DNA of 64,000 nt from Mobula hypostoma (GCF_963921235.1 NC_086097.1:26414001-26478000), one strand, 5' to 3'; positions 1,851 through 49,540 are shown, counted from the first letter of the stretch. The notes: generated by a model not told the origin, from the sequence alone. Made by a program: numbers and translations.

Positions 1851-1988
1851 AGTCCTGATGAAGGGTCTCGGCCCAAAAAGTCAACTGTTTATTCATTTGC
1901 ATAGATGCTGACTGACCTGCTGAGTTCTTCCAGCATTTTGTGTGGGTACCTCAAGATATCCAGCATCTGCAGAATCGCTTATGTTTAT
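1851..1988 (+). mobile_element. Penelope pLTR fragment with degenerate hammerhead motif
   Basis: agtcCTGATGAagggtctcggccc-AAAA-agtcaact (GAAA mutated), followed by the family body atagatgctg..ctgctgagttcttccagcattttgtgtg. Confidence 0.8.
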
Positions 1989-2284
1989 CTTCAAATTATC
2001 TTGTACTACCGTCAAGGAGGAGGTACAAGAGCCTGAAGACCTAAAGTCAACAATTCAGAGGCAACTTCCTTCCCCTGCATTATCAGATTTCTGAATGCCA
2101 CGAGCACTACCTCATTATTCCTTTTTAATTACACTATTTATTTCGTAATTTATTATAATTTATAGATCCTTACACTGTACTGCTGCTGCAAAGCAACACA
2201 CTTCATGTCATATAAGACAGCAATAATAAACCTGATTCTGATTATGGGCTGTAAAATTATGCTCTAGTGTAATTTTATGCTGGT

Positions 2285-3238
2285 CGCCATCCACCACAAA
2301 AGGCGGGATTTCCTGATGGCTACTAACTTCAATTTGACTTCCCATTCTGACATATTGGTCCATGGCCCGTCCTACTGGCATGATGAGGCCACACTCAAGC
2401 TGGAGGAGCAACACCTTATAACCTACCTGTGTAGCCTCCAACCTGATGACATCAACACTGATTTCTCCAACTTCGGGTAATTTCTCTCCCACCCCTCCTT
2501 CTCACTTTTTCCATTCCTCATTCTGGTTCTCCTTCACTCCTTTTCTTCTCCTCACTTGCCTATCACCTCCCTCTAGTCCCCTCCTTCTTCCCTCTCTCCC
2601 TTGGTCAACTGTTCTCCATCAGATTGTTCCTGATGTTGGGAAAGTCTGGAATGAGGGGTCACAGTTTGAGGATAAATGGGAAGCCTTTTAGGACCGAGAT
2701 TACCAAAAACTTCTTCACACAGAGAGTGGTGAATCTGTGGAATTCTCTGCCACAGGAAACAGTTGAGGCCAGTTCATTGACTATATTTAAGAGGGAGTTA
2801 GATATGGCCCTTGTGGCTAGAGGGATCAGGGGGTATGGAGGGAAGGCTGGTACAGGGTTCTGAGTTGGATGATCAGCCATGATTGTACTGAATGGTGGTG
2901 CAGGCTCAAAGGGCCGAATGGCCTACTCCTGCACCTATTTTCTATGTTTCTTTTTCAGCCCTTTACCTCTTCCAGCTATCACCTGCCAGCTTCTTACTTC
3001 ATCCCCTTGTCACCACCCACCTTCTCCCTCACCTAACCTATCACCTGCCAGCTTGTACTCCTCCTCCCTCTGCCTTATTCTGGCTTCATTCCCCTCCCTT
3101 TCCAGTCCTGATGAAGGGTCACAGCCCGAGACATCAATTGTTTGTTCCCCTCCATTGGTGCTGCCTGACTTGCTGAGTTCCTCTAGCATCTTGTGTGCGT
3201 CCTCTAGATTTTCAGGATTCACACAATCTCTTGTGTTT
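2285..3238 (+). mobile_element. Penelope-like element 3' part (GIY-YIG C-terminus, 3'UTR, pLTR) interrupted by a CR1 3' end at about 2621-2951
   Basis: ORF 2277-2480 (DEATLKLEEQHLITYLCSLQPDDINTDFSNF) is homologous to the GIY-YIG tail at 4674-4760. Pyrimidine-rich 3'UTR and degenerate hammerhead at 3102-3140. The CR1 insert encodes RGHSLRINGKPFRTE..NFFTQRVVNLWNSLP. Confidence 0.85.
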
Positions 3239-3376
3239 ATAATAAACCTGTTTCTGATTCTGATTATGGGCCTGAGAAATTATGCACTAATGTAACTTTG
3301 TGCTAGTGACCTGAATGGAAAGGAAGTGAAAAATAGCACCACCAACAGAAGAAACAAAACCAAAATTCACTGATCT

Positions 3377-3967: not shown

Positions 3968-3999
3968 TGATCTCTTAAATCAGCCACACTTTAACATAC

Positions 4000-4145
4000 A
4001 TAAAAAATGCTGGTGAATGCAGCAAGCCAGGCAGCATCTATAGGAAGAGGTGCTATAGATGCTGCCTGGCCTGCTGCATTCATCAGCATTTTTTATGTGT
4101 GTTGCTTGAATTTTCAGCATCTGCAGATTTCCTAGTGTTTACAGA
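4000..4145. mobile_element. Short fold-back Penelope pLTR insertion
   Basis: Inverted pLTR arms (aaatgctggtgaatgcagcaagccaggcagcatctatag / ctatagatgctgcctggcctgctgcattcatcagcattt); ttaacatac repeated at 3991-3999 and 4146-4154. Confidence 0.8.
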
Positions 4146-4384
4146 TTAACATACCTAGTATTAACTGATTAATATAAATTTGTAGCTTTAGCTGGACACA
4201 ATCCTCAACTCTAACTGCAGAATAACGGAAGTGCATCGTATTGCTAGCCTGGAAAAAACCTCGAATTTAGTACCAATGGCGAGATTTTATCAGTGTGCAT
4301 CACCACCACTTTGACAAGAATGAAAATTCCCCTGGTCTTCCATGAATAATGCATTGCCATCTTTCACTCTCCATAAATGGTTGT

Positions 4385-5095
4385 AAACACAAAATAATCT
4401 GGAGATGCTGTTGTCAAAGGAACACTCACAATGCACTGGAGGAACTCAGCAGGTCAGTCAGCATCAGTTGAAAAGATTAGTCGACGTTTCGGGCCAAAAC
4501 CCTTCGTCAGGACTGAAGGAAAAACTTTGGGGAGGATTTGAAGAATGCTGGTAGTCGAAAAAAACAATAATTTGAAAGACAAAGGGGTGGGGGAAGGGAA
4601 GCAGGCAGGTGATTGGCAGGAGAACAATGCGCAGTAGTAGAAGGAGGCGGAACTATGAGGGAGGTGGAGGGAATTACCGGAAGTTGGAGAATTCTATGTT
4701 CATACCAAGGGGCTGGAGACTACCTAGACAGTATACGAGGTGTTGCTCCTCCAACCTGAGTTTAGCCTCATCACGGCAGTAGAGGAGGCCACGTATGGAC
4801 ATATCTGAATGGCAATGGGAAGCAGAGTTAAAGTGGGTGGCTACCGGGAGATCCTGTCTGTCGTGGCGGACAGAGTGGAGGTGCTCGACGAAGCGGTCCC
4901 CCAATCTGCGTCGGGTTTCACTGATGTAGAGGAGGCCGCACCGGGAGCACCGGATGCAATAGATGACCCCAAAAGATTCGCAAGTTAAGTGTTGCCTCAC
5001 CTGGAAGGACTGTTTGGGGCCCTGAATGGTGGCAAGAGAGGAGGTGTAGGGACAGGTGTAGCACTTACGCTTACAGGGATAAGTGCCAGGTGGGA
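4385..5095 (-). mobile_element. Penelope-like element 3' end: GIY-YIG endonuclease, 3'UTR and pLTR with intact hammerhead core
   Basis: The C-terminal part of ORF 4674-5348 reads PCKRKCYTC..CESFGVIYCIRCSRCGLLYISETRRRLGDRFVEH..VATHFN..RLEEQHLVYCLGSLQPLGMN, the Cys-rich linker plus GIY-YIG signature of Penelope/Neptune-type elements. Confidence 0.92.
4479..4514 (-). ncRNA. Minimal type I hammerhead ribozyme motif (PLE-associated), core intact
   Basis: Minus strand reads AGTC CTGACGA AGGGTTTTGGCCC GAAA CGTC GACT: stem I AGTC/GACT, core CUGANGA and GAAA, stem II GGG/CCC, palindromic ACGT stem III, GUC cleavage triplet. Confidence 0.8.
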
Positions 5096-5556
5096 GGTAC
5101 AACACCTTGTATTCTGTCTGGGTAGCCTCCAGACTGATGCCATGAACATCGATTTCTTGAACTTCCTGTAATGCCCACTCCATCTTCACCATTCCCCACC
5201 ATTCCCCATCCCCTTTTCCCTCTCTCACCTCATCTCCTTGCCTGCCCATCGCCTCCCACTGGTGCTCCTCCCCCTTTTCTTTCTTCCATGGCCTTCTGTC
5301 CTCTCCTATGAGACCCCCATTTCTCCAGTGCTGTATCTCTTTCACCAATCAACTTCCCAGCTATTTAATTCATCCCTCCCCCTCCTGGTTTCACCTATCA
5401 CCTTGCATTTCTCTCTTCTCTCCCCCACCTTTTAAATCTGCCCGTCTTTTTTTCTCCAGTCCTGCCGAAGGGTCTTGGTCCAAAACGTTGACTGCACTTT
5501 TTCCATAGATGCTGCCTGGCCTGCTGAGCTCCTCCAGCATTTTGCGTGTGTTGCTT
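5096..5556 (+). mobile_element. Second Penelope-like 3' end (diverged copy), head-to-head with the minus-strand copy
   Basis: QHLVFCLGSLQTDAMNIDFLNF*, then a pyrimidine-rich UTR, a degenerate hammerhead at 5457-5494 and the pLTR body. Confidence 0.85.
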
Positions 5557-7044: not shown

Positions 7045-7182
7045 CAAACACAAGGATATCTGCAGATGCTGGAAATTCAAGCATCTGTCCTGACAAAGGG
7101 TTTCAGCCCAAAACGTCACCTGTACCTCTTCCTATAGATGCTGCCTCCCTGCTGAGTTCCACCAGTGTTTTTTGTGTGTTGC
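7045..7182. mobile_element. Short Penelope pLTR insertion (inverted 3' piece plus direct piece) with 14-bp TSD
   Basis: tatcatttaagttg (7031-7044) and tatcattttagttg (7183-7196); degenerate hammerhead from 7087. Confidence 0.8.
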
Positions 7183-7746
7183 TATCATTTTAGTTGGTTT
7201 ATTTGGCAAGGGCTCATGACTACAGCTCCTATATTTGATTCCCCAGCAACACAGTACATTGATAAATACAGACAGATTAGATTTATGATTTCCATTGGAA
7301 AATACCATGTAATTTAAGTATTTCCAGCACAATTCTAACCTCCTGAATACATGTTAAAATTAATTAATAGTCCTCTAAAATGATTGAAATACATTTTAGT
7401 GAAACTTGTCGCACTTGAGCCCTCACTCAATCTGAATTTACTGGAACTGCAGCTTGTTCTCAGGCTGGGGACCTCGACATTAGACAAGTCAGCAAGCGTC
7501 TATGTTAATATGAGTAATTCACCCCAAGTGTTCAATGTTGCAATAATGAGAACTTTCACTGTGCAACTCAAGTAGTATACAGGCTGATCTTGGATTAGGC
7601 ATAGGTTCCATTCCAGAGAACTGTCTTTCATCCTATTTTACTTTGAAACAGAAATATCTTTTCGGGATCTACCCATATTGCATTATTCTACAAGCACCAT
7701 AATTCTTTCATTAAATAATCACCCACAATTAAATTAATGGAACATA

Positions 7747-8302
7747 TACTCAGAGGCCACTTCATTAGGTACACCACTTGTTAATGCAAATATCAACTCA
7801 GCCAATTATGTGGCAACAACTGAATGCACAGAGGCATGCAGACATGGTCAAGAGGTTTAATTGTTGTTGATACCAAATGTGAGAATGTGGATGAAATGTG
7901 ATCTAAGTGATTTTGACTGTGGAATGATTGTTGGTGCCAGATGGGGTGGTTTGAGTATCTCAAACTGCTGATCTCCTGGAATTTTCATGCACACTAGTCT
8001 CTAGAGTTTACAGAAAATGGTGCAAAACACACAAAAAAAAATCCAGTGAGTGACAGTTCTGTGGGCGAAAATATCTTGTCTAGGAAAGAGGTCAGAGGAG
8101 AATGACCAGACTGGTTCAAGCTGACAGGAAGGGAACACTAACTCAAATAACCACTCATTACAACAGTGGCATGCTGAAGAGCATCTCTGAAAGCACATGT
8201 CGAACCTTGAACTGGATGGGCTACAGCAGCAGACAACCACGAATATGCACTCAGTCACCACTTAATTAGGTATAAGGTAACTAATGAAGTGGCCACTGAG
8301 TG
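7747..8302 (+). mobile_element. Non-autonomous Tc1-type element; partial relatives at about 27975-28352, 33540-34258, 34590-35718, 46248-46365 and 52617-52860
   Basis: TIRs (c/t)actcagWggccacttcattagg ... cctaatgaagtggccactgagtg flanked by TA; internal Tc1 HTH-like remnants; extra internal TIR copy near 8248. Confidence 0.85.
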
Positions 8303-9025
8303 TATACTGTATCTAGTCATTAATAAACACCATGAAACATTTTATTATTAACTTAAAAATTCTTTAAAATGTATGGAGAATTTAGTAGTTTGATTTCTGA
8401 AAGTCAAATCACTCGTAACTCGGGGAACCCCTATACAACACTTCTTTGTTTTTCCAGAAAAACCAAATTTCAAAAGTTAAATTTCAATTTTGGAATGGCA
8501 CAATTCATTGTTCTATCTTGAACCAAAAGTACTGGAATCATAACAAATACACAAGGAGAAAGGTTTGCTGCCATGGAAGGGGTTTGAGGAGGCTCATGTG
8601 GGACATAAAACAGTACTGACTGCCTACAAGAAACTTTACACTCTGTAATCTGACAGCCAATCCAGAAATGCTTAACCCTTTCTCTGGCTGCAGTCTCAGC
8701 CAACAATACATCTTCTCTCAGAGCTTGGATCATCTCCACAACCAACATCCCAATCTCTGCGTTGGCTTTGCAGGTGTGTCAGCAAAGTGTTCCAGAGCAA
8801 GGAGACACATCTCTAGTGAGCTTTACTCCATCAGTAGCTGCTCGCCCATAAATTACATCGAAAGGTGGAAAAATATGGGGGGGCGCTAGTGCGCATGTGT
8901 ATGGATTAGACATGTTTGGTCAGTGCTCCTCTCCGAGACCTCGATAAAATTACTATTATACCATGTTTTATTCATTCGTAGGACAACAGTGTATGTCTAA
9001 ACTAAGTGACTGGAAAAGTTTGACA

Positions 9026-10392: not shown

Positions 10393-10959
10393 ATATATTG
10401 ACACTGTTTATTCAGCTTATATTTGTGCCGGTTTCCATATCGGGATGAGGGGAGGGACTTGCCTGTTATATGTAGTTTTGCAATGTTGTATGCCGCACTG
10501 GGATTTAATTGCAGAGAATGTTCTAAATATTTTTGTTATTATAAAGGTTACATTTGAGTTGGTGTCATGAATGTTCAGCTTCCGGTGCAGACACTGGATA
10601 ACTCACCCCAGCCCTAATAGCATTTGTTTAACGGTATTATATAATTTGTGTTATAAATTTTCTTGGGGGGGGGGGGGTTGTGATAATTGTGTAATGTTAG
10701 TTACCTGCCCAGCAGCTCCTTTTGGGATGGAAATGGGAAACCATGTGTCTGGTTTAGGGAGGCACGAAGGGGGGTGGGTTAGGGTGTGTGTTGTTTCTGT
10801 TTATAGCTCAGACATGCCTTTTTTGGTGTATGTTGTGTTCTTATGAGGTTGCCAGTTATTTTGCATTGTTTACTAAGTTTGTGCTCAACTCTAATAATCT
10901 CTTTTTTTATTCTCATATGCAGAGGCCCTGCAGTAGAATGCAGCTGGGGGGGTAAAGAT

Positions 10960-13900
10960 ATTACAACATTCTCGCGGAATGTTAAGGGCCTTGGTCATGT
11001 TGTTATGAGGGATAAAGTTTTTAGACATCTCAAATCTCTATCTGCAGATGTGATTTTTCTAAAGGAAACCCATATCAAAGTAACTGAGCAACGCAAATTG
11101 AGATCTAGCTGGATATCGCAGGTTCACCAGTCACCATTTACTTTTCATCCCCGTGGTGTTGCTATCCTCTTTAGGAAAAATATTCCATTTCAACTCACTT
11201 CCATGACCACAGATCCTCTCAGCAGGTTTATTATGATCTCTGGCACCGTTAATTCGTTTCCGCTAACCTTCCTTAATATTTATGGTCCAAACACAGACGA
11301 GCCAAATTTTTTTAGGAAAGTTTTTGATTTACTTCCGGATGCCAGTAATTCAAATATAATAATCGGCGGTGACTTGAATTGCTACCTGGATCCATATTTA
11401 GATAGATTGTCCTCCCACCCACCCTCAAATATTGTGTCAGTGCAGGTCCTAAATAATTTGATTAGATCTAGGAATTTAGTAGGTATTTGGCGAGTTCAAC
11501 ATCCCACCGACAAGGACTATTCTTATTATTCTCATGTACACAAATCTTATAGTAGAATAGACTATTTTTTGGTTGACTCTCATTTAATATCTCGTGTTAC
11601 CAATACAAAATATCATAATAGATTAATTTCTGACCATAGCCCCTTGACAATGTCCCTAAGTCTCTCCCCTTCCAAACAAATCTATTCCTGGCATTTTAAC
11701 CCCTCCCTACTCGCTAATAAGAAATTTATAGAATATATCACCACTAGATTAAAAGATTCTATAGAAATTAACGATAACAGCGAGGTGTCAGATTCCACAC
11801 TCTGGGAGACATTAAAAGTTGTAATTCGTGGGTCACTCATACCAACAATAAGAGAAAAACAACTCAGATTTCTAGGACACATCATGCGGAAAGATGAGCT
11901 AGATGCTCTCTGGAAAGATCCAGGGGAGCAAACCTAGAGGAAGACCTCAGCTTATGTACATCAAAAGCCTAGCCGGGTGGCTACACATCGAGGAAATGGA
12001 AGTCATTCAAAGAACGAAGGATAGATCTATATGGAAAACCATGGTTACCAACATCCGCATCGGATATGGTACCTAGACAGACAGACAGAATTCGTGGGTA
12101 TACAATTTCATATGAATCCGCTGCTAAGTGGGAGAGAGAAGGGCGATTATTAGAGATTGAGAATATTCTCCCAACCCTCGAAGCGACGTACCAGGCTTCG
12201 AAATCCTCTGAAGATTATAATAAAGTAATGAAGCTTAAATATGAGTACAACTGTATCCTGGGTAGTCAAATAAATAACCTCCTCTTAAAATTAAGACAAA
12301 AGCATTTTGAAATGGGGGACAAGCCTGAGGGGCTCCTGGCACGGCAGCTCAGGGGTGCCCAGGCCCTAAGGTCAATTCATTGCATTAGGTCGAGGGCAGG
12401 TACCCTGTTAACTAACCCCAAGGAGATAAATGACTGTTTTAAAGAACTTTACAGCGAACTCTACACCTCTAAATGCAATGCCACTCAATCTGATTTGAAT
12501 GACTTTTTTGATTCTCTTGCAATGCCGAGACTTAGTGACGCTGCTAGGGAGGACTTAGATTCTGACTTCACATTGGAAGAAATAACTTCTGCCATTAAGT
12601 CATTTCCGTCCGGCAAGGCTGCTGGGCCGGATGGATTTGGCTGTAAATTTTATAAGAAATTCTGTGATATCCTTGCCCCACTTCTCCTCAGAATGATATC
12701 TTGCTCTGAGAGAGATAAAGCCTTACCTAGGACATTGTATGAGGCTAACATTTCCCTCATTTTAAAGAAAGATAAAGAGGAAACAGACCCGGCCAGCTAT
12801 AGGCCCATTGCACTTCAGAATTTCGATAGAAAGGTAATTACTAAAATGCTGGCTAACCAACTAAATAAGTATTCGTCATCTATCGATCATCCTGATCAGA
12901 CAGGATTTGTCCCGGGTAGGTTCTCTTTTTCCAATGTCAGTTGCCTCCTTAATACTATCTACACTGATCATAGGAAAGCTAATGGGGCAGCAATTTTATC
13001 CCTTGATGCACAAAAGGCTTTTGACCAGATTGAGTGGCCTTACATGTTTGAGTCACTGTACAGGTTTGGGTTCGGGGAGTCATTTGTATTTTGGGTAAAA
13101 CTGATATATGCCAGCCCAATATGCTCTATCATAACTAATGGAGACAATTCAACTCTGTTTCCCCTACACCGTTCAGTCCAGCAGGGGTGCCCTCTCTCGC
13201 CGGCCCTTTTTGCCGTCGCGGTAGAGCCCCTTGCCCTAAAAATAAGAAGTCACCCAAATGTTCTGGGTTTGAAAGTGGGAGGTATTGAAACACTTATTAG
13301 TTTATATGCCAATGATGTCATACTCTACTTACAAAACTCAGAAAAGTCAGTCCCTCTTCTTCTAGATTTAGTCACCTCTTTTGGCAGACTATCGGGATAC
13401 TCAATCAATTGGACAAAAAGTGACTTTGTGCCCCTCTCCAACGACTACACGCGGGGTTTTTTGGCAAGTGTCCCATTCAAAGTAGTTAAAGATCACTTTA
13501 CTTATCTCGGTTTGACAATCCCCAAAGATCCTAAATTAATATTCAAACTAAACTTCGCAGAGTTTATTTCAAAACTTAAACAGAATATAGAATATAGAAT
13601 ATAGAAAGTTGGAAAACCCTACCTCTGTCCATGATTGGTCGCATAAATTCAATTAAAATGGTTTCCCTTCCGAGGTTTCTCTATCTTTGTCAAAATCTCC
13701 CCATTTTTCTTACATCAGCTTTCTTTAAAGAATTGGACTCTATCATATTGTCTTATATCTGGAATTATAAGAAACATAGGATTTCAAAAATTCATTTACA
13801 AAAGCCCTAGTCTGAAGGAGGGCTGGGATTACCTGTATTCAGATACTATTATTGGGCTGTCAATGCTAGGGCTTTAATGGTTTGGCAACAGGGGGCTCCG

Positions 13901-16372: not shown

Positions 16373-16971
16373 ATAGATAGCATCATAGAGCACAGATTAA
16401 GGTTCTGTGTTGTACTATGACACTTTATGGAGTGTCATATAATGTCACAGAGCAACATGACACTATTACTCTAGTGCTAATGAGTCCTTTCCGACCCAAC
16501 TAGTCCCAATTTCCAGTGAGTCCAGCAAATTCCTATACACCCAACAATGAAAAATCAAGCTGAAACTAAAATAGAGCTTACTTTCAGCACAGATAAGATG
16601 GGCTGAAGGGCCTATTGCCGTGCCCTATGACTATGCTCCGAATCGTATACATTGATTTATTTTAATTAAAGTAGTCCAAGTTTATACAGTCTTGATTGAA
16701 ATTAAAACTGCATGGCTATGATTTATTGCAAGAAGCCTTCCAGATTTATTTCTTTTTCACAGTCTCTCTGTCACAAGATAACCTTTAATTGGAACAGTAT
16801 GTAGAAGAAAAAGACCACTGTCCACAATCACCTTGTTCTTCAGTTAGCTGTCAGGATGCACAAGTGCAACTACTCCCAACTCTTCCACTACACACTGCAG
16901 CAGGGGGACTGGTCTCTTGCCACTCTCTTAACAGGCAAGACAATGGCTGAAACCAAGCATTAGCAATAAAG

Positions 16972-17190
16972 CAAACACAAGGAAATCTGCAGATGCTGGA
17001 ATTTCAAGCAACATACATAAAAGTTGCTGGTGAACGCAGCAGGCCAGGCAGCATCTCTAGGAAGAGGTGCAGTTGACGTTTCGGGCCAAGACCCTTCGTG
17101 ACGAAGGGTCTCGGCCTGAAACGTCGACGGTACCTCTTCCTATAGATGCTGCCTGGCTTGCTGCGTACACCAGCAACTTTTATGTGTGTT
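16972..17190. mobile_element. Palindromic (fold-back) Penelope pLTR insertion with 13-bp TSD
   Basis: Arms of about 90 bp form a near-perfect inverted repeat centred on CCCTTCGT-G-ACGAAGGG (17100); TSD ATTAGCAATAAAG at 16959-16971 and 17191-17203. Confidence 0.92.
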
Positions 17191-17954
17191 ATTAGCAATA
17201 AAGTCAACTATTGGCATCAATCCAGCCTCTTTGACTAGTTACAGAATCAAAATCAGATATAGGTTTATTATCACTGATATCTGTCAAGAAATGAGTTGTT
17301 TTGCAGCAGCAGTACATACTACAAATTACAATATATGCATTTCAAAGAGAGAACAAAAATACTGAGGTAAGGTTCACGGACCGTTCAGAAATCTGACGGC
17401 AGAGGAGAAGAAGCTTTTCCTAAAACATTTAGTGTGTGTTTTCAGGCTCCTGAATCTTCTTCCTGATAGTAGTGACGAGAAGAGGGTGGTGGGGATCTTT
17501 AATGATGGATGCCTCCTTTTTGAGGCATCACCTTTTGAAGATGTCCTTAATTTTGGGGAGAGCAATGCCCATGATGGAAATTTAAAACAATAGTTGAGAA
17601 TCAAAGTTAAAACTGTCAAATATCATTATTTAATCAGAACAAGATCAGCAGATGCAATGATTACATCACTAAAAACTGCAGCTGCTGAACATGAACTTTG
17701 ATTTGATTTTGATTTTCATTTGTAACTAAATGTTACTGCTCAGTTTAAGTACTGCAAAAAAAGTCTAGGGATGAATAATAAGCAAAACAAGGAGGAAAAG
17801 GAGGAAATCTTGCAAAAATATTGGTTCTTTTACTACACACTATTGCTAATCCATTTAGTAATATAAAGTACTTTTTTTAAAAAGAAGTACTCAGTTCATA
17901 CCATTTAACTGAGAGATATTAAAGTGCATGATACAACTGGATAATAATGCTGAA

Positions 17955-20974: not shown

Positions 20975-21111
20975 CTGTGATATCCCCTCGGGGAAGTTGG
21001 AGGCGTGTTAAAAACATGAGAGTAGGGATGATAGGGCGTCTTTTTCAATGCTTGAATAAGGTTTTGTCTGTATTCTGGATCTATACACCACAAGGAGCCC
21101 TTCCCAATACT
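20975..21111 (-). CDS. FOXN3: Internal coding exon of forkhead box protein N3 (C-terminal end of the forkhead domain)
   Basis: Translates [45 protein letters not shown], matching my recollection of vertebrate FOXN3/CHES1 (FOXN2 reads WCVDPEYKPNL). Flanked by a polypyrimidine acceptor ttcctgcag|AGT at 21111 and donor CAG|gtaagc at 20975. Length 137 nt, phase 0 to 2. No other FOXN3 exon recognised in the window. Confidence 0.93.
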
Positions 21112-21329: not shown

Positions 21330-22060
21330 AAATTCTGCAGGTGGAAATCCCGAACAACACACAAAGGCTGGAGGAGCTCAGCGGATCAGGCAGCATCTAT
21401 GGAGGTGAATAAACAGTTGACGTAGTTGACGTTTCAGCCCAAGACTCTTCATCAGGACTGGAAAGGTGGGGGGGGGGGGCGCAGAGGCCAGTATAATAAG
21501 AAGGTGGGGGAAGAGGAAGGAATACAAAGCTGGCAGGTGATAGGTGAGACCAGGTGAGGGGAAGTGGGTGGGTGGGGAAGCAGGTATGAAATAAGAAGCT
21601 AGCAGGTGCTAGGTGGAAGAGATAAAGGACTTAAAGAAGGAAGAATCTGATTGGAGAGGACAGTGGACCATGGGAGAAGGAAGGAGGAAGGGAATCAGAG
21701 GGAGGTGATAGGCAGGAGAAGAGAAGGGGTAATGGGGCAATCAGAATGGGGAATGGAAAAACTCAACATTTATTCCCCTCCATAGATGCAGCCTGACTTG
21801 CTGAGTTCCTTTCAGTGTTTTGTGCGTGTTGCAAGTCAATGTAATTGTTGAGTGATGACACAAGGGACTGCAGATGCTGGAATCTGGAGCAAGAAACAGA
21901 CTGCTAGAGGTACTGTACTCAGCGGGCTGAGCAGCATCTATGGAGGCAAAGGGATGGTTGGCATTTCGACAGTGTCCTGACCCTAAACGTTAACCATCCC
22001 TTCCCTCTGCAGATGCTGCCTGACCCATTGAGTTCTTCCAGCAACTTGTTTATTGCTAAA
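21330..22060. mobile_element. Two adjacent Penelope pLTR-derived insertions (minus-strand 3'UTR/pLTR with a short inverted arm; a second fold-back copy at 21860-22060)
   Basis: Minus-strand hammerhead cagtcCTGATGAagagtcttgggctGAAAcgtcaact at 21424-21460; purine-rich UTR complement; inverted pLTR arms. Confidence 0.8.
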
Positions 22061-25990: not shown

Positions 25991-26168
25991 TACGTGCAAA
26001 TTGCTGGAAGAACTCAGCAGGTCAGACAGCATCGATGGATGGGAATAAACAGTTGACTTTTCGTCAGGTCCTGTTGAAATTCATCTGCTGCCTGATCTGC
26101 TGAGTTCTTCCAGGCATTTTGTGTGTGTGGTTCAAGATTTCCAGCATCTGATTAATCTTGTTTTGTTT
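25991..26168. mobile_element. Fold-back Penelope pLTR insertion; similar copies at 27881-27972, 32100-32227 and 38540-38713
   Basis: Inverted arms; imperfect TSD atttaaagtcatgaa / atttaatgtcaagaa (25976, 26169). The copy at 38540 has TSD tgctctggatta (38528, 38714). Confidence 0.75.
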
Positions 26169-28709
26169 ATTTAATGTCAAGAAGCCAATATGAGCAATGT
26201 CCCAGCTTTGAATGTAATCCCCACTAATGTATATAAAGATCTTCAACAGTCACACCACATGATCAACCTTGTGAAATAACAGCAACAGATCTGCACAATG
26301 CAGAATCATTTACTTTAAGTTTCTCAACATGACTGTTTCTTCTGAAGCAACACAACATGGATGAAAGTGCAATTTCAGTGAAATAGAGTTATAATGTACT
26401 TATCACAACTGAATTTGGAAAACTTGCTGTACAATTGAAACTTTTGTCTTTCTAAAGTTGAGTACTAATTGCTTATGATACTTGGGGCTAGATAAAACCA
26501 TGTAAAAAAATCATGGTGATAAATTTAGAAATTTAAAGCAATACAGTATGAATATTAAAGCACTTTAGGTACAATATTACCTTCAGTATTCTAACATTAG
26601 TATGAAAAGTAAGACTGGTGGCAGTCAGTACAAGATCGGGGTTGATTAGAATGTAATCAAAAGTGGTGCAGCAGTCCTGAGAAAACAAATATAATTAATA
26701 AGTATTAAATTCTTGCTTTTCCCTAACTAGGTTTATTGGCCTGATGAGTTGTACCACCCAGGGTACTTAGATACATGTCATTAAGCTGCAGATTGCAAAC
26801 ACAATTAAAGTAATGATTTTAAACTTGTTAATACAAGCCGAAGGTATAAATCATTTATGGGCACCATTCATGTGGCACAGCAAAAGACGGTATTGTGCCA
26901 ATCACTTTCTTTCACTTCAGACTGCTCCATCAGGATCAGCAACAGTTATCACCCTTCAACCATCAGGCTCCTGAAGCAGCATGGATAACTTCACTCACGT
27001 CAACTCTGAACTGATCCCACAACCTACACACTTACTTTCAAAGACTCGAGAACCACATTCTCAATATTATTTATGTACTATTTATTTATTACCATTTGTC
27101 CTTTTTGTATTTGCTGTTTCCCTTTTTTTACAAATTGGTTGTTTGTCAGCCTTTGTGTGTAGGTTTTCGTCAATCCTATTGGATTTCTTTGCTCTCCTGT
27201 GAATGCCCGCAAGAGATTAATCTCAGGGTGGTATATGATGCAATATACCTACTTTGATAATAAATTTATTTTGGGCTTTGATATCTAGTCAGTTATCCAT
27301 TTCACATGTACAGCAGTGCAAAGGCCAGAGGTACTAAAGCCAATTTAAATTTCCGAATGCATTTTTAACAGTGGAAAAATCAATAATATTTAAGGCCACT
27401 TTCTTAATGATTTACCAATGTATGAGAAGACAGCTGGCACACTACTCCAGAAATTCATCCAACCCCAAAAGTCAATAGTGTTTTCAATCATCAAAAAAAA
27501 ATGTGGATTATACATCTATTTCCATAGTAACGCAGTCGTTCCAAGCAAATGTTCTTTGAATCTCAGCAAACAGATATCAAACTCTGAATGTGGCTTCCAT
27601 GTCTGCCATTACTCCATATACTTAATCACATTTACTACTTTGCAAGTGTATTGCTTTTATTATTTCTTTCAAAAGGATTAAATAGATACAGACAAACAGT
27701 TTGGATGAAGGCTACAGTCAACTTCTTATTGAAATTACAACCTTCAGAGAGGAGGTACAACCTTCAGAGAGGAGGTACAGGAGCCTAAAAACACACACTC
27801 CAAATTTTTAGAATTGCTTCTGCAGCTCTGCCATCAAATTTCTCAATGGACAATGAATACTATCACACTACATGTCAAAGTTCCTGAAGGTGAGTCTCGG
27901 CCCGAAACTGTTTACTCTTTTCCATAGATGCTGCCTGGTCTGCTGAGTTCCTCCAGCATTTTGTGTGTTGCTTGTAATTTGATCCAAGTGACTTTGTGGA
28001 ATGATTGTTGATGCCAAATAGGGTGGTTTGATTATCTTAAAAACAGTTGATCTCACATTCAACAGTCTCTATAATTTACAGAGATTGGTGTTTGTAAAAA
28101 AAAAATCCAGTGAGCGGCTTTTCTGTGGGCGAAAGTGCCTTGTTAATGAGGGAGGTCAGAGGGGAACGGCCGGGAGAGTTCAAGTAGACAGGAAGGCAAC
28201 AGCAAATTAAATAACCATGCGTTACAACAGTTGGTGTGCAGAAGAGCATCTCTGAATGCACAAAACGTCAAAACTTGAAGTGGATAGGCTACAGAAACAA
28301 AAGACCACATCAGGTTTAACTGCTGTACATAATAAAGTAGCCAATGAGTGCACGTCTCATACTGTAATTTATAATACATATGATGCAATTCATCGCATTG
28401 CTGTCACTTACTTGCACTACTTCTCTTTCTTTACATGCAGTGGATTCCGATTAAATGGGGCATATCAGGAGCAGTACATTTTGTCCCAATTAAGAGGCTG
28501 CCTCAATTAGCTGAAGTTTCATTGAAATATAAACCCCATTTCCAGAAAAGTTGGGATATTTTCCAAAATGCAATAAAAACAAAAATCTGTGATACGTTAA
28601 TTCACATGAACCTTTATTTAACTGACAAAAGTACGAAGAAAAGATTTTCAACAGTCTTACAGATCTACTTAATTGTATTTTGTAAACGTACACAAATTTA
28701 GAATTTGAT

Positions 28710-33100: not shown

Positions 33101-33660
33101 AAGCTGATACTTAATCTATTTCTGAATAATGATTTAATATTCAACCATCTCCTCTCTTTCCCTTATTGGCCTTATTCCAGTATACTCCTATCCCAATCTC
33201 TATTTTATTTATGTATTTGCAAATTATTTTACAAGTTTGTTTACAGACATATACACAAGATGGAGGGGAGTGAGGGTTTGATCAGATTAATTGCCTGGAG
33301 GAAGAAATATTTAAGATGGTGTAGTTAGAAGGGAACTTTTGGAAAAGCCACTTTCAGGATGTGTAGCATCTACGATATTCTCCCTGCTCACTTCTTTGTC
33401 CTGGACACATACAACTGTAATCTTTTACACATCAGTTGTTTGTCTTTGTGTGTAGATTTTTATTGATTCTATTGGGTTTCTTTGTACCTACTACAAATAT
33501 CCGCAAGAAAGTGAATCTCAGGGTAGTATATGGTGCCAGATACCTAATAAAGTGATCACTGAGTGTATGTTTGTGGTCTTCTGTTGCTTCAGCCATCCAC
33601 TTCAAAGTTCAAAGTGCAATGCATTCAGAGATACTCTTCTGCACACCACTGTTGTAATAC

Positions 33661-33859
33661 ATATAAAAGTTGCTGGTGAACGCAGCAGGCCAGGCAGCAC
33701 CTCTTCCTAGAGATGCTGCCTGGCCTGCGTCCTGACGAAGGGTCTCGGCCTGAAACGTCGACTGCACCTCTTCCTAGAGATGCTGCCTGGCCTGCTGCGT
33801 TCACCAGCAACTTTTGTGTGTTGCTTGAATTTCCAGCATCTGCAGAATTCCTGTTGTTT
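33661..33859 (+). mobile_element. Short Penelope pLTR insertion inside a Tc1-like MITE, with 13-bp TSD and intact hammerhead
   Basis: TSD actgttgtaatac at 33648-33660 and 33860-33872; inverted arm, short duplicated piece, then a direct pLTR. Confidence 0.9.
33729..33762 (+). ncRNA. Minimal hammerhead ribozyme motif, core intact
   Basis: GTC CTGACGA AGGGTCTCGGCCT GAAA CGTC GAC. Confidence 0.78.
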
Positions 33860-34811
33860 ACTGTTGTAATACGTGGTTATTTGAATTACTGTCGCCTTCC
33901 TGTCAGCTTGAACCAGTCCAGCCATTCTTTGCTGACCTCTCTCATTAATAAGGCACTTTCTCCCAAAGAACTGCTGCCTCATGGATGTATTTTGTTTTTC
34001 GCACTGTTGTACGTGGAAATCCCAGGATGTCATCAAGAGGGACTCAAATCACTACATCTGACACCAACAATCATTCCACAATCAAAGTCATTTAGATCAC
34101 ATTTCTTCCCAATTCTGATGTTTGGTCTGAACAACAACTGAACCTTTTGACTACGCCTGCGTGCTTTTATACATTGAATTGCTGTCATGTGATTCGCTGT
34201 TTAGATAATGTATTAGCGATGTGTACAAGCATACTTAATAAATTGGTCACTGAGTGTATATGAATAGGAAAGTCAGCACGGACTTGAAAAGGGAAGGTCA
34301 TGCTTCACCATCATTATTGAGTTCTTTGAAAGAGTAGATCAGTGTAATGAATTGGATGTAATGTACGCAGTTTTTCAAAAATCATTTGGTATCAGTGGTC
34401 AAAGTGTGTGGAATTGGGGTCAAGGAGCAGAATGAACAGAGAAGTGGCATTCAGACAAAGTAGCCACTCAGACTGGCAGGAAGAGAATTAGTTGCTTTGG
34501 AACTCCTGTGGTTCATAGTTTGTATCAATGATTTAAAATCTAATGTGCAATATCCGAATGGCAGCAAATGTAGAGTAATAGTTAAAAATGAATCCGAAAC
34601 TGCTGATCTCCTGGGATTTTCATACACAACAGTCTCTACAATTTACAGAGAATAGTGTGAAAACATCCAATGAGCAGCAGTTCTGTGGGCAAAAATGCCT
34701 TGTTAATAAGAGTTCAGAGGAGAATGGCCAGACTAGTTCAAGCTGACAGGAAGGTGACCGCATCTCAAATAATCACGCATTCCAACAGTGGTGTGCGGAA
34801 GAGCATCCCCG

Positions 34812-37754: not shown

Positions 37755-38055
37755 GCAACACTCAAAATGCTGGAGGAACTTAGCAGGACAGGCAGCATCT
37801 ATGGAAGAATAAACAGTTGATGTTTCAGGCTGAGACCCTTCATCAGAACTGGAAAGGAATGGGGAAGAAATTCAGTAGAAGGAGGTGGGGGAGGAGGCAG
37901 TGCGAGGTTTACAAGCTAGAAGGTGATAGGCGAAGTCAAGTGAGGGGGGAGGTGGGTGGATGAGGGGGGGGATCAGTGTGAAGCTTGCAGATGATAGAGG
38001 GAAGAGGTAAAGGGTTTACGAAGAAGGAATCTGATAGGAGGGAAGAAGAAGCACC
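37755..38055 (-). mobile_element. Penelope 3'UTR/pLTR with near-intact hammerhead (37814-37851)
   Basis: Minus strand CAGTT CTGATGA AGGGTCTCAGCCT GAAA CATC AACTG. Confidence 0.8.
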
Positions 38056-38899
38056 AAAGTTTATTGTGCACTGTATGTGCATGTTAGAGAAAGTAATATA
38101 TGGGTATGTTGACAGAAAATGAAAAGGACATTTGCAAAGAAAACGCAAAGCAGCTGAGCTGAACGGTCTGTTTCTCTTCTGTACACTTTGAAAGCTCCAA
38201 CTGTTCACTCGGAATCCTATTCCGACTCTGATCATGTGTCTAAATGTAAGAACAAATTTGTGACACCAATTTAAGAATCCACATTGAATCATGCCTTGCA
38301 CTGCAGGACTGTATAATTTGAATGCATACTAAAGAATATGACTCAATATAACATAATTTCGGCCGATTCAGATCAAATAACAGACGGAAACAGAAAATAG
38401 TTACTTGCTGTATATGCAATTTATCTGAAGTTCTACCATTGATTGAAAAAATATCAGCTACAGTGACTGAAAAAACACTTGAAACCCACTGATTAAATAC
38501 CAAGATCTCTTTCCCACTAGAAAACGATGCTCTGGATTAGAAACACAAGAAAATCTGCAGATGCAGGAAATTCAAAGCAACAAACGCTCACTTTATTATC
38601 AAAGTATGTATGTAGAATACAACTCTGAGATTCTGAGCCTGAAACGCTGACTGTTCACTATTTTCCACAGATGCTGCCTGGCCTGCTGGGATCCTCCAGC
38701 ATTTTGTATGTGTTGCTCTGGATTAAATCAGTAATAGAACAAATGTTACAGTTTTGATGTAAAATTGAAGCTAAAACAACACTGATGGTGTAAGCAACAT
38801 TTAAAAGTTAATTCATATATTACACACAGTATTTTACCATAAAAATATGAAAAATGGCATATGGTGTCAATATAATTTTTATATTTTCTTTGCCATTGT

Positions 38900-40300: not shown

Positions 40301-41194
40301 AGATGAATTTTTGGCTGAGAATCGTGAAAGATAGAAACAGAGCCTATTGATAAATAATCAGCTTAGCTGGCAGAAATGTAACTTATTATTTTATATAAGG
40401 TCACTAACTCATCTGCTGAGTGATCATAGATTATCCATATTTCAATGAAACAAATTATTCTCCACATTATAATGAACATAAATGGCAAAGCAGCAAAATT
40501 ATGACCTCAACATTCCCATAGTTTAATCTGAAGTAAAAGACAGAAGAGACTATGATAGTTGCAACAGTAGTGTGTTCTGGGACACATTATATATAAAAGG
40601 AATGAGGAGGTAAAACCAAGCACTTTGTGTGGGCAACATTATTTTCCATCTAAGATTTACTCATTTCTCTTCAACTGCACGTCCAGTGCACTACGAGACT
40701 TCCTTCTGCTACAACTAGCAGTCTTACTACTTTAACCTTACTGAGATAATGTATGCAGCTTGACCTTGCACTCTCCTGATACCAGAGACTGCATTCTTTA
40801 CTGTTTACTAAATTACCGAGACCTGGTTTATATGCTGAATACTTAGGCAGGAGTTGATATGCTTCATCACCAAGATCTCAAACATTTCATGGCTGTGGAT
40901 GTAAGTGCTACTGGACGTCCTCTTTAAGCATCAGTATAACCGAAGCCTGCTTGAAACAGATGAACACTCCAGCCAGTTGATCAGCACAGGTATTTAGTAC
41001 TTGGCCAGGAACCCCATCCTAGCAGGAAAATAATGTGCCCACCTGAAGTGCTTGATTTTACCTCCTCATTTCTTTTATATGTAAATATGCCCCAGAACTC
41101 ACTACTGTTACAACCATCACCACCTCTTCTGGCTTGTATTCCTGATCAAACTATGGAACTGCTCAGTTCATATTCTTGCTGCGGGCTTCAACTA

Positions 41195-42657
41195 CACTGG
41201 TGCCTAGGAAGAGTTTGGTAACCTGCCTCAATGATTATTGTCCAGTCGCACTTACATCCACTGTGTTGAAACGTATCAGCTCCTGCCTGAGAAGTGACTT
41301 GGATCTGCTCCGATTTGCCTACCAGAGCAATAGGTCCAAAGCAGGTGCCATTTCATTGGCTCTTCACTCAACCCTGGAACATCTGGACAGCAAAGAAGTA
41401 TACATCAGGATGCTCTTTATTGACTACAGCTCAGCATTCAATACCATCATCCCCTCAAAACTAATCAATAAGATCCAAGACTTGGCCTCTATAGTGCAAT
41501 TGGATCTTTGATTTTCTCACTTGCAGACCCCAGTCAGTTCAGACTGGCAACAACATCGCCTCCACGATCTCCATCAGCAAAGCTGCACCACAAGGCTGTG
41601 AGTCTAACCCCCTGCTCTACTCACTTTGCACTTACGACTGTGTGGCTAAGCACTGCTCCAATGCCATATTCAAGTTTGCTGATGACACCACTGCCGTAGG
41701 CTGAATCAAAGGTGGTGATGAATCAGCATATAGGAGGGAGATTTGGGAATTTGGTTGAGTGATGCTACAACTCTTACTCAGTGTCAGCAAGACCAAGGAA
41801 CTGATTATAGACTTCAGGAGAAGAAATCCAGCAGTCCATGAGCCAGTCCCTCACTGGAGGATCAGAGGTGGAGAAGATCAGCAACTTTAAATTCTAAGGT
41901 GTTACTATTTCGGAGGGACCTGTCCTGGGCCCAGTACATAAGTACAATTATGAAGAAAGCACATCAGCACCTCTACTCTACTTCCTTGGTAGTTTGCAGA
42001 GATTCAGCACAATATCCAAAACTTTGACAAATGTTTATACTTTTCAATGTCTCTAAACTTCTATAGCTATGCTGTTGAGAGTATATTGACTGGGTACATC
42101 AGAGCTTGGTATGGAAACACCAATGCCCTTGAAAAGAAAATCTTACAAAAAGTACTGGATATGGCCAGTGCATCACGGGTAATACCCACACAACCCTCAG
42201 CACATCTACATGAAACGCTGTTTCAGGAATGCAGCATCTATTGTTACAGACCCACATCACCCAGGTTATACTCCCTTTTCATCAGTAAGAAGGTACAAGA
42301 GCCTCAGGACTGATACCACAAGGTTCAGGAACAATTACTACCCCTCAACCTGTCAGGGGATAACTTCACTCACCCCATCATTGAAATGTTTCCACAACCA
42401 ATGGACTCACTTTCAAGGACTCTTCATCACATGTTCTCAATATTTATTACTTATTTATTTATATTATTGTTTCTTCTTTTTGCATTTCCACAGTTTGGTG
42501 TCTTCTGCACTCTAGTTGAATGCCCTAGTTGGGCAGTGCTTTGTTGATACTGTTATGGTTATTATTCTATAGACTTGCTGAATATGTCCACAGGAAAATG
42601 AATCTGAGGGTTGTATATGGTGACATATATATACTTTGACAATAACATTGAACTTTG
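41195..42657 (+). mobile_element. Rex1/Babar RT and 3' end
   Basis: [42 protein letters not shown]. Confidence 0.88.
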
Positions 42658-42659
42658 AG

Positions 42660-44330
42660 CCAAAAGAGATGAGGGAGATCTTAAATAGATTTTTTGCATC
42701 TATATTTACCTGGGACATGGACACAGAGTCTACAGAAGTAAGACAAAAAAGCAGTAAGGTCATGGACAGTATACAGATTACAGTGCTGCCTTGCTGCAAA
42801 ACAGGGTGCATAACTCCCCAGGGCCTGACAATGTGTTCCCTCAGACCTTCTGGGAGACTAGTGTAGAACTTGCAGGGGCCCTGGCAGAGATGTGTACAAC
42901 ATCCCCAGCCATGGGTGAGGTGCCAGAGGTTTGGTGGATAGCTAATGCTGCTCTGCTGTTTAAGAAAGGCTCTAAGAATAAACCAGAGAATTATAGACCA
43001 ATGAGCCTGACATCAGTAATGGGGACATTATTAGATGGTATCCGAAGAAACCAGATATATGAGTATGTGGATAGGTAGGGATAGTCAGAATGGCTTTGTG
43101 GATGGTAGGTCGTGTCTAACCAATCTTATAAAGTTTTTTTGAGGAAGTTGCCAGGAAAGTTGATGAAGGCAAGGCAGTGGGCACTGTCTACATGGACTTC
43201 CATCAAGGCACGTGGAAAGGTTCCACAGGGTCACAAACATCCGGTCACTTCGCATTCAAGATGAGGTCGTAAATTGGATGAAACATTGGCTTTGCGGGAG
43301 AAGCCAGAGAGTGGTAGTAGATGGTTTCCTCTCTGACTGGAGACCTGTGACTAATGGAGTGCCGCAGGGATCGGTGCTGGGTCTGTTATTGTTTCTCATC
43401 TGTATCAACAATCTGGATGATAATGTGGTTAACTGGATCAGCAAATTTGTGGATGACAACAAGATTGGGGGTGTAGTGGACAGCGAGGAAGTCTGTCAAA
43501 GCCTGCAGTGGGATCTGGACCAGCTGGAAAAATGGACTGAAAAATAGCAGATGGAATTTAATGCAGACATCTGTGAGTGTTGCACTTTGGGAGGACCAAC
43601 TTGTGTCTTACAGAGTGAGTGGTTCGGCACTGAGGAGTGCGGTAGAACAAAGGGATCTGGGAATGCAGGTCCATAATTCATTGAAAGTGGCGTCACAGGT
43701 AGATAGGGTCATAAAAGATGTATTTGGCACATTGGCCTTTATAGATCAAAGCAATGAATATAGGAGTTGGGATGTTATGTTGAAATTGTATAAGACACTG
43801 GTGAGGCCTAATTTGGAGTATTGTGTGTAGTTTTGATCACCTACCTACAGGAAAGACGTAAATAAGATTGACAGAGTACAGAGAAGATTTACAAGGATGT
43901 TGCCAGGTCTAGAGGACCTGAGTTATATGGAAAGAGTGAATAGATTAGAACTTGGAGGGGAGATTTGATAGAGGCATACAAAATTATGAGGGGTATATAT
44001 ATGGTAAATGCAAGCAGGTTTTTCCACTGAGGATGGGTGAGACTACAACTAGAAGTCATGAGCTAAGGGTGAAAGGTGAAATGTTTAATGGGAATATGAG
44101 GGAAAAGCTCTTCACTCGGAAGGTGGTGAGAATGTGGAAAGAGCTGCCAGCACAGGAGGTGGATGTGATTTTGATTTCAACATTTAGGAGCAGTTTGAAT
44201 AGGTACATGGATAGGAGGGGTATACAGGGTTATGGTCTGGGTGCATGTCGACAGGTCTAGGCAGTTTAAATGGTTCAGCGTGGGCTAGATCAGCTGAAGA
44301 GCCTGTTTCTGTGCTGTGTTCCTATAACTC
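42660..44330 (+). mobile_element. CR1 ORF2 (RT) and 3' end, decayed
   Basis: SPGPD, KKGSKNKPENYRPMSLTS, GVPQGSVLG, SKFVDD, LYKTLVRPNLEYC. Confidence 0.9.
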
Positions 44331-47169: not shown

Positions 47170-47790
47170 ATCATTTTCACACTTAAGAAATATTGCAAAG
47201 CTACGTCCATTCCATCACAAAACAATGCTGAAAACTAATTCGCGCCTTTATATCAAATAGACTGGATTACTGTAATGTACTTTTTACTGGCCTTCTGAAG
47301 CAATCTAATGACAAACTTCAACTCCTTCAGAATGCCGCTGTTAAGACTTCTAACTAAAACCAGGATGAGGGAGCATATCACTCCCATCTTAAATACTCTA
47401 TATTGGCTTCCTGTATCTTATAGAATTGATTTTAAAGTTTTCTTACTTATTTTTAAATTTCTTAATGGTCTGGGACTGGCATACATAGCAAAGTCACTTT
47501 TGTTTTATGTTTCTGCTCAAGCTCTCTGGTCTTTTTCTGCCGGTTTCTGAAATTTAAAGTCTCCCTGTGAAGATATTTGGCAGATCAGCTTTTTTTTAAA
47601 ACTACACTCCTAAACCGTGGAACTCGATACCTAAAACTATAAGGGATGCAGATTCAGTTGACGCTTATAAATGCCAGCTCAAAATCTATTTATTTAACCT
47701 TGCTCTGAACTAACATCATTGTGGATTTTATTTTCATGTTTGCTCTTTATCCCATTGTAAAGTACTTTTAACTACATTGTTTGTAATGAT
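47170..47790 (+). mobile_element. L2-type LINE 3' end
   Basis: AFISNRLDYCN..REHITPILNTLYWLPVSYRIDFKV, characteristic of the L2 C-terminus. Confidence 0.8.
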
Positions 47791-47849
47791 AAGTTATTAT
47801 CATTATCTGCCTGTTTATGACCTGCTTGTCAAAATCTGGGACCAGCTGA

Positions 47850-49540
47850 ACTCAGGGACACTCTTCAAAAAGGGTGACAAAGCTGACTGCAGAAATTATA
47901 GAGGCATCTCCCTCAACTCTACTACAGGAAAGGTACTCACCTGAATTTTATGTGACTGGCTCTTACCTCTGGCAGAAGATCTCCTGCCTGAGTCTCAGTG
48001 TGACTTCTGTCCAGCCTGAACATCTGACATAATTTTCACAGCATGTCAATTGCAGGAGAAAGCCCGGGAACAAAATCTCCCACTTTATATGGCCTTCATA
48101 CAGCTTACAAAAGCATTTGACTCTGTAAATCATCCTGCTGAAGGGCCTCGGCCCAAAACGTCGACTGTACTTTTTTCCATAGATGCTGCCTGGCCCACTG
48201 AGTTCCTCCAGCATTTCATGTGTCGCTGTAAGTCATCCTGCCCTTTGGCAGTTACTGTCCAAAATTGAGTGCCTGGAGAAATACTTCAAAATCCTTCACA
48301 ATGATATGAGTGCAACAGTCATCATTCTGAAACAACACCTTTTAAGGTTGAGACCAGGGTCAAACATGTGTGCATCATTGCTCCAAGTCTGTTTGCCATT
48401 TTCATTGCAACCATTCTTCACTTCAGTGGCCAAGAGCTCCCACAGGAGCCCAGTTTCACTACAGGATGGATGGGGAGCTTATTAACCATAACAGGTTCAA
48501 GACAAAGAGCAAGGTACCATCATGGAGCTCCACTATGCAAATGACAATGCCATGGTAGCTCACTCTGAAGAGGATCTGCAGTGCATAATGGATGCTTTTG
48601 CCAGTGCATACAAGCTCCTGGCACTTGACCTAAACATCAAGAAAACCAAGTCCTGCACCTACCTACTCCAGATCAAGCTCCTAAACCTCCAACCATCTAA
48701 GTTGACAACATCCCTCTGGAGAACACTGATCATTTCCCATATCTTAGCAGCCTTCTTTCTTCAAGAGCCAACATTGACCTTGAAATAAAACGCAGAATAG
48801 ACTGTGCAAGTGGAGCTTCTGCCAGGCTGAGAAAGATCAGGATATCAAGACTAACACTAAGCTTCTGGTCTATAAAGCCACAGTCCTCCCCTCCTTGCAA
48901 TATGGACCGGAGTCATGGACAACATACCACAGGCACATAAAATCCCCAGAAACTTGCCATCAAAGATGCCTCCGAAAGATTCTGAGGGTTAGCTGGAAGA
49001 ACAGGCATACTAATTCCAGCATCCTGGTGGACGCTAACATTAACTCCATAGCCACCATCATGACTCAACACCAATTGCAGTTGGTTGGCCATATCATTTG
49101 TATGGCTGACTCCAGCCTCCCTAAGCAATTGCAGTTCGGCCAACTCGAGGATGCAAAGCACACTCCTGGAGGGCAGAAAAAGTGGTTCAAGGACAATATC
49201 AAGACCCACCTGAGGAAATGCCGCATCAACCTGAATGGACGGGAGAAATTAACACAAGATAGGGAAAGCTGGAGAAGGACTGTCTATGAGGGGACTGTAC
49301 AGCTCAAAGAACAGCTTCACGGTGCCGCTGAGACTAAGCAGCTTCAACATGACAGGAGACTGGGAAAGGCCCAACCAGCTACATCACCACCCCTTCAATG
49401 ACCTACACCTGCCAACACTGCAATAGGACTTGTGGATCACGGATCAGCCTCTTCAGTCATCTCAAGACCCACAACTGACCAGATCAAGCACCAGGGAATC
49501 ATACTTGACTACGGGTGATCGCTGATGATGATTATTATTA
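47850..49540 (+). mobile_element. RTE-clade LINE (RT to C-terminal C2H2 finger), with a Penelope pLTR insert at 48138-48225
   Basis: NYRGISL, QEKAREQNLPLYMAFIQLTKAFDSVN, YAND, HQRCLRKILRVSW, GGQKKWFKD, CQHC..HLKTH; (GAT)n tail. The pLTR insert has TSD ctgtaartcatcctg at 48123 and 48226. Confidence 0.9.

Follow-up and report, generated by a model that had tools for sequence, protein, structure and literature searches.

Copies of a Penelope-like element with a minimal hammerhead motif in two FOXN3 introns of the ray Mobula hypostoma, and their probable origin from RNA spanning the predicted cut

Minimal type I hammerhead ribozymes (min-HHRs) have been described in the Neptune, Poseidon and Xena elements of fish, which are Penelope-like elements (PLEs) (Cervera and De la Pena 2014, PMC4209133). 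According to published work, min-HHRs are inactive as monomers and weak as dimers (PMC4209133), the function of PLE hammerheads is stated to be unclear, and the elements called Naiads spread without a ribozyme (Craig et al., 10.1101/2021.04.23.441226). The ribozyme of PAc, a Poseidon element of Anolis, needs protein, and insertion in vitro does not depend on it (Frangieh et al. 2024, PMC11167929). Here we describe a PLE family with such a motif in a 64,000-nucleotide (nt) stretch of the Mobula hypostoma genome (NC_086097.1:26414001-26478000), which we call the window and which contains part of the FOXN3 gene. Our main conclusion, to which we give a probability of roughly 0.7, is that the copies are 5'-truncated PLE insertions made from RNA that spans the predicted cut, and that they decay neutrally in two FOXN3 introns.

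The ray motif agrees with the features described for min-HHRs (PMC4209133): type I topology, a stem I of 4-5 bp, an extra base between positions 9 and 10.1, G10.1-C11.1, a palindromic 15.2-16.2, no loop 3, and a location in pseudo-long terminal repeats (pseudo-LTRs), mostly of single truncated copies. It differs in its 4-bp stem II, a lineage-wide A6C and a G10.1-U11.1 pair, and in its abundance: the degenerate intact motif has 45,412 exact occurrences genome-wide (0 for the control), compared with about 4,000 in coelacanth and 9,000 in Xenopus, counted by another method on older assemblies. No ray is named in the parts of that text compared here; the supplementary alignments of the paper may include cartilaginous fish.

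In the window, 11 copies have at least 26/40 identity to a 40-nt copy (0 in each of 20 shuffles), and a profile of the repeat finds 24 pieces (0 in reversed controls), as expected from the original prediction, which had been made from the sequence of the window. The bare hammerhead core pattern is not above chance in the window (8 matches vs 6.9 expected) and an Rfam scan of the window gives no hammerhead match; the case rests on the repeat and its stems. Separately, a 65-nt near-palindrome of an unrelated repeat (8243-8307) is matched on both strands below the Rfam cut-off. The translation of 4674-5097(-) consists of a CX3CxxC linker and a GIY-YIG/CCHH-type domain, and this piece is joined by a 160-nt pyrimidine-rich spacer to the motif at 4514-4479(-), which bears out the predicted physical link between motif and coding region. 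By itself, the piece matches Pfam GIY-YIG at E=0.067; full-length relatives have reverse transcriptase (RT) plus GIY-YIG, as a PLE should. Another fragment of the end of the open reading frame (ORF) and the untranslated region (UTR) lies at 2290-2616(+), broken up by a different repeat.

Several details of the original prediction change (Table 1). The cores at 4479-4514(-) and 33729(+) are fully intact, as claimed, the latter antisense to FOXN3. Those at 21424(-) and 37814(-), called nearly intact, retain the core letters, but stems I and II are broken in the former and the stem III palindrome in the latter. The copies at 5457 and 48133 are not merely degenerate, since their A6C is a property of a whole, large lineage; the core of the family is not invariant. 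The motif is the head of the repeat in short copies only; in ORF-bearing copies it is the tail. In addition, the head-to-head pair at 16972-17190 had been overlooked.

Long copies give the anatomy of the element. RT and GIY-YIG lie in one ORF (RVT_1 and GIY-YIG matches on loci L044 and L045), 1,438 of 8,000 scored sequences are relatives at E<=1e-30, and the closest named proteins, from Hypanus and Mobula, are 68-84% identical in the best endonuclease (EN) matches and 75-81% in RT-EN. A unit consists of the motif, a 100-nt tail, an ORF of about 1,040 codons, a pyrimidine-rich UTR and the next motif. Its length is 3,551 nt in L326 and L327; in L327, the first shared ATG lies at about +134 from the predicted cut, and the stop about 3,115 nt further on. 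Partial tandems occur at L050 (with a deletion), L205, L216 and L226, and 4 of 29 loci taken at the 5' part of the ORF continue from a same-strand motif via the tail into the ORF. The repeat itself corresponds to the pseudo-LTR of an EN+ PLE.

This PLE likely belongs to the Neptune clade, judging from its linker motif: CX3CxxC is present in all long ORFs read, and Neptune-clade EN+ PLEs have a CX2-5CxxC linker between RT and EN (10.1101/2021.04.23.441226). Their RT, C-terminal GIY-YIG with CCHH, DKG motif, partial tandems, adjacent inverted copy and optional 30-40-bp tail are likewise shared; adjacent inverted copies accompany 58 of 179 ray copies, and the optional tail corresponds to two clusters of 3' ends about 38 nt apart. 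Animal non-LTR retrozymes also carry a PLE-derived type I hammerhead and include one chondrichthyan (PMC7229834; 10.64898/2026.07.22.740005). Retrozymes form tandem non-coding arrays, whereas the ray copies are dispersed truncations of a coding element; those in the window are dispersed or head-to-head and linked to the coding element.

To compare lineages, we clustered 261 copies on the upstream 70 nt alone. The six main clusters, for which we coined the labels F1-F6, comprise 135 of the 261 copies; the others are short, inverted or ungrouped, and loci chosen by pattern are over-represented. Hammerhead positions carry the conventional numbering, "initiator-like" and "branch-point-like" refer to the general consensuses, and the predicted cut after GUC is the zero point for positions such as -32 or +65. 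Median identity to the consensus is 93.6% in F1, 84.7% in F5 and 79.5% in F6.

The consensuses of F1-F4 have the CUGANGA/GAAA/UH core, stems I and II and the palindromic loop-less stem III of a type I motif, as originally described, and so does that of F6 once CpG decay at G12 is allowed for; F5 lacks A6. The motif is predicted to self-cleave only as a dimer, after GUC, and in the predicted monomer fold the core is trapped against stem III. Fold z-scores are modest (-0.1 to -1.6) and are given no weight. Mean pairwise identity among the six consensuses is 94% in the motif, 58-59% upstream (59% just before the motif), 55% in the linker just after it, 85% and 76% in the two tail parts, and 85% in the ORF end, which is nearly the same in F2-F4. 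Thus, the better conservation of the motif than of its flanks, on which the original prediction depended, is found; the covariation of stems that was to accompany it is absent within this genome. The consensuses differ at N7, loop II, the outer stem I pair and A6, with no compensatory change among the six. A candidate subfamily covarying at the first stem I pair was rejected, being only 23 sporadic double-changed copies genome-wide, 9 of them unpaired.

Covariation is found outside the ray. A metagenome scan for the same geometry, with a pattern that left stem I free, gave at least 82 motifs with unrelated flanks (80 of 122 stretches). Among the matches listed, the first stem I position is paired in 79 of 82, with four Watson-Crick types, and 40 distinct stem I types show 73% pairing vs 41% when shuffled (0/5000). 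This pattern supports the wider motif class, not this family. In lineage F4 (L205, L216, L226) the ORF frame is open upstream through the tail and the motif. As a general explanation, conservation of the motif as coding sequence was nevertheless rejected, since the F1, F2 and F3 consensuses contain stops.

The ends of the copies carry most of the argument about their origin. In an unselected sample of 179 copies, 41 of the 5' ends lie at -34..-26 (32 of 137 in random loci alone), a rate of 5.4% per nt at risk, compared with 1.2% and 0.3% on the lower and upper sides of that range, and this hotspot is present in F1, F5 and F6. It recurs in an independent set of young F1 copies, made up of the first 100 entries among 42,037 matches to a pattern that spans -8..+26; all 100 lie on C1. 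Their 5' ends fall at -33..-31 in 14 copies and within -38..-23 in 31, and the rate at -33..-31 is 5.8% per nt vs 0.27% and 0.37% on the flanking sides (p ~1e-9). The 3' ends form two clusters, near +63..70 and +99..107, in both samples. A peak at the predicted cut is not significant, with 9 of 179 5' ends within 3 nt. Because the 5' ends lie at the first bases of the ribozyme and not at the cut, the templates appear to have been uncut, and the RNA likely starts there. An artefact of unrecognised UTRs was rejected: only 1 of 41 flanks is pyrimidine-rich, and the hotspot was repeated in the independent sample.

PAc behaves similarly in that two internal RT starts define the ends of its copies, uncut RNA is the substrate and no read ends at the cut (PMC11167929). 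Its start codon, however, lies in the ribozyme region and its RT starts lie within the ORF. In the ray element, by contrast, the probable RT starts precede the first shared ATG, which is about 134 nt past the cut. A 5' hotspot is not among the PAc features reported in the parts of that paper compared here.

Instead of an RNA start, the hotspot may reflect pausing, fold-back or template switching of RT, either at stem I or where the pyrimidine tract borders on it, an explanation that we take seriously without thinking it probable. Of the 31 young hotspot copies, 17 are inversion arms, and the complementary DNA (cDNA) could pair its stem I strands. At L324:717-3203, a duplication-flanked insertion of about 2.5 kb begins at the motif, which also fits our own reading; it extends 2.4 kb into the ORF and continues, after an internal jump at -35, with another motif and tail, as template switching would produce. 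However, 10 of the 14 non-inverted hotspot copies are clean inserts flanked by 10-14-bp duplications (duplications of at least 8 bp occur in 10 of 14 and in 0 of the mismatched pairs), and upstream the end rate drops to 0.3-0.4% per nt, with no rise in the pyrimidine tract.

All six consensuses have pyrimidine-A at -33/-32, which is initiator-like but equally fits a 3' splice site. In Drosophila virilis Penelope, helix I marks the end of an intron and the transcription start is located farther upstream (PMC4209133), a precedent for the idea that the motif follows a spliceosomal intron and that spliced RNA is the template of short copies. A pyrimidine tract and YAG precede the motif in 6 of 6 consensuses, with a branch-point-like heptamer in F1, and two donors at the ORF end fit the exit points of the Hypanus isoforms P0003 and P0016. 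Against this, the two spliced junctions have 3 and 0 genome matches at 1 mismatch, which largely refutes insertion templates spliced from ORF end to motif, and the hotspot flanks are target duplications or inverted arms with no common exon; we consider the splicing explanation improbable. For the record, about 20 nt before the motif the F1 consensus has the heptamer, after which come the pyrimidine tract and two AGs 4 nt apart.

Alternatively, the dimer might be cleaved and ligated into a unit-length circle with one re-formed, monomer-inactive ribozyme, which RT then copies, as has been proposed (PMC4209133). Such a circle accounts for cut-spanning copies and for tandems of more than one unit, and it fits the canonical core kept in five of the six lineages and the trapped core of the predicted monomer fold. 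Yet an end at -32 is not expected of a circle, and something else would have to cause the hotspot; the A6C lineage was amplified nonetheless, to an extrapolated 70,000 or so copies; and ribozyme mutants had no effect on insertion in vitro (PMC11167929). This origin seems unlikely to us.

Several observations weigh against our own reading, in which uncut RNA starts at the motif. F6, an old lineage with a canonical core, supplies eight of the nine copies that start within 3 nt of the cut (end rate 1.75%, compared with about 0.95% per nt; p=0.13), and some templates may thus have been cut. F1 has a second initiator-like site at -36, and its hotspot spreads over -38..-23. The inversion arms noted above are also expected from a pause or fold-back, and the conserved YYAG may serve as an initiator or as a 3' splice site, or as neither of them. 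In-family selection on structure is unproven without compensatory change among the consensuses, and tail A, at 85%, is conserved as well. Finally, the Neptune assignment has the linker motif as its sole basis, and Nematis has the same linker.

The number of copies is very high, as the original prediction supposed. An exact 37-mer occurs 835 times in the 3.48-Gb genome, and 80 evenly spaced 10-kb loci contain 160 pieces, spread over 66 of the 80. Extrapolated to the whole genome, this gives 0.70 million fragments (95% 0.59-0.81 million). Among 104 random motif-spanning copies, 25 keep the core and 14 are intact. The A6C lineage accounts for about 70,000 copies, extrapolated from 18 of 86 motif-spanning copies in 914 kb. 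At A6C loci, 24 of 30 have no F1 flanks, and the flanks are F5-type where present; conversely, with the F5 flank fixed and position 6 left free, 100 listed of 371 matches have 92 C, 6 T, 1 A and 1 G. Copies assigned to F5 by their tails in the unselected sample (n=25) have 16 C, 2 T, 6 A and 1 gap, a mixture that suggests imperfect assignment or a related A6 lineage. A natural A6C hammerhead is known from phage Bcep176, where it is slow, with a k obs below 0.1 per min, and is described as weak (Perreault et al. 2011, PMC3088659); that is a single phage motif, whereas the ray A6C is fixed in a retrotransposon lineage with a minimal fold. By this comparison, A6C would weaken but not remove the case for a working ribozyme in F5. 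In young F1 copies, U11.1 is found in 15 of 23 and G12A in only 1, which indicates a change in the master copy, not CpG decay.

We propose that the two tail sites would serve the element protein for internal priming, in the way demonstrated for the anole element, and that the RNA would likely begin at the first base of stem I, where the sequence is initiator-like. Run-off copies of 95-135 nt would then come from priming in the 5' repeat, and longer copies from priming in the 3' repeat. The ribozyme is probably weak and probably acts only in tandem master transcripts, trimming the RNA or switching it off; cleavage is likely not required for insertion. A more specific version, which is tentative and on balance doubtful, is that an RNA starting on the first base of the hammerhead would make a self-decapping switch: cleavage would remove the capped 32 nt, uncut RNA would yield strong-stop-like cDNAs of 95-135 nt that insert alone or jump to the 3' repeat, and the weakened lineages (A6C, G10.1-U11.1) would have kept or gained mobility.

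FOXN3 lies on the minus strand, and its exon at 21111-20975 places the copies in two introns and not in one, as had been assumed. A forkhead exon 44.5 kb beyond the right end of the window, also on the minus strand, matches FOXN3 best (structure 6nce, E=5e-44; next FOXN1, 2e-25), and another exon is likely present, as judged from a sequence motif, 29.7 kb to the left. Between these flanking exons, 138 kb contain 49 pieces, 27 of which span the motif; 16 are sense and 11 antisense, which is no strand bias (p=0.44). Six of the 27 keep the core letters and two are fully intact, one of them sense. Core and non-core bases decay alike after insertion (1.9/1.7%, 10.5/12.3% and 11.5/12.4%), so no host role is shown: the copies decay like neutral debris in FOXN3. 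It is very improbable that FOXN3 pre-mRNA is cut by intronic copies or that selection acts against such copies for this reason. Such a role would fit the intact sense copy at 4514, a second sense copy that has the core letters and lies some 310 nt from the exon acceptor, and a window density about twice that of random DNA (24 pieces vs 12.8 expected; bootstrap 0.002, ignoring regional clustering). On the other hand, only 1 of the 16 sense motif-spanning copies is intact, it has no intact sense partner in 138 kb, and there is neither strand depletion nor slower core decay. Nothing points to a FOXN3 role for the element or its ribozyme, or to anything special about this gene.

Table 1. Copies of the element and the FOXN3 exon in the window
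Feature	Position	Strand	Remarks
Solo old-lineage (F6-like) copy	1851..1987	+	Begins at first base of motif; core broken
Old F6 copy	3036..3239	+	Core broken
Fold-back pair of tails	3993..4140		Without motif
Tail	4384..4478	-	Ends at distal 3' end cluster (+99 from predicted cut)
Minimal type I hammerhead motif	4479..4514	-	Intact; stems I and II of 4 bp each, stem III loop-less; sole intact copy sense to FOXN3
Predicted cut of this motif	between 4483 and 4482		
Pyrimidine-rich 3' UTR, F2	4515..4673	-	
C-terminal 140 codons of PLE ORF, F2	4674..5097	-	CX3CxxC linker and GIY-YIG/CCHH endonuclease piece
Older F5 copy	5087..5555	+	ORF end, UTR, A6C motif (5458-5493), short tail; head-to-head with F2 copy
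Inverted tail and copy beginning at -31	7045..7183	+	Core broken
Head-to-head F1 pair (16972-17190)	16959..17203		Within 13-bp target-site duplication; stem I 5' strand missing from both arms
FOXN3 coding exon	20975..21111	-	Second half of forkhead domain
Old F6 copy	21342..21563	-	Sense to FOXN3, ~230-450 nt before exon acceptor; core letters kept, stems I and II broken
Decayed solo copy	27882..27968	+	Begins at -30
Young F1 insertion	33648..33872	+	Inverted arm, then copy from -31; antisense to FOXN3; motif 33729-33763(+) intact, 3-bp stem I, G-U at 10.1-11.1; 13-bp duplication read from sequence
Old F6 copy	37758..37948	-	Core letters kept, stem III palindrome broken
Solo F5 (A6C) copy	48133..48223	+	Begins at -30
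Tail-only or part-motif fragments	21769-21944, 25997-26169, 32099-32226, 38541-38724, 57889-57961		

The window also contains other mobile elements: a near-full long interspersed nuclear element (10807-15070(+)) with endonuclease, RT and zf-RVT matches in three long frames, Tc1/mariner-type transposase fragments (29133-30133(-); HTH_Tnp_Tc3_2, DDE_3), and further RT fragments at 38876-39256, 41146-41511 and 43167-43547 (+) and 60703-61739 (-).

The element and its ribozyme are textbook for PLEs; the additions are the 5' ends at the start of the ribozyme and the large A6C lineage. In a literature search that excluded subscription papers, Repbase and Dfam, neither this ray family nor the 5' hotspot turned up. 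Annotated isoforms of Hypanus host genes (P0003, P0016, P0017) include the endonuclease end of the element, and P0003 and P0016 leave it where splice-donor-like sites lie at the ORF end; such fragments enter ray gene models, which matters for annotation. For the family, the useful facts are that copies probably come from cut-spanning RNA, that 5' ends lie at the ribozyme start, and that a lineage with a weakened core was widely amplified. The hundreds of thousands of copies, with four natural variants (canonical, A6C, G-U closing pair and N7=A), serve as genomic tests of PLE hammerhead function, and if the self-decapping version were true, this genome would offer a natural series in which the purpose of PLE hammerheads could be examined.

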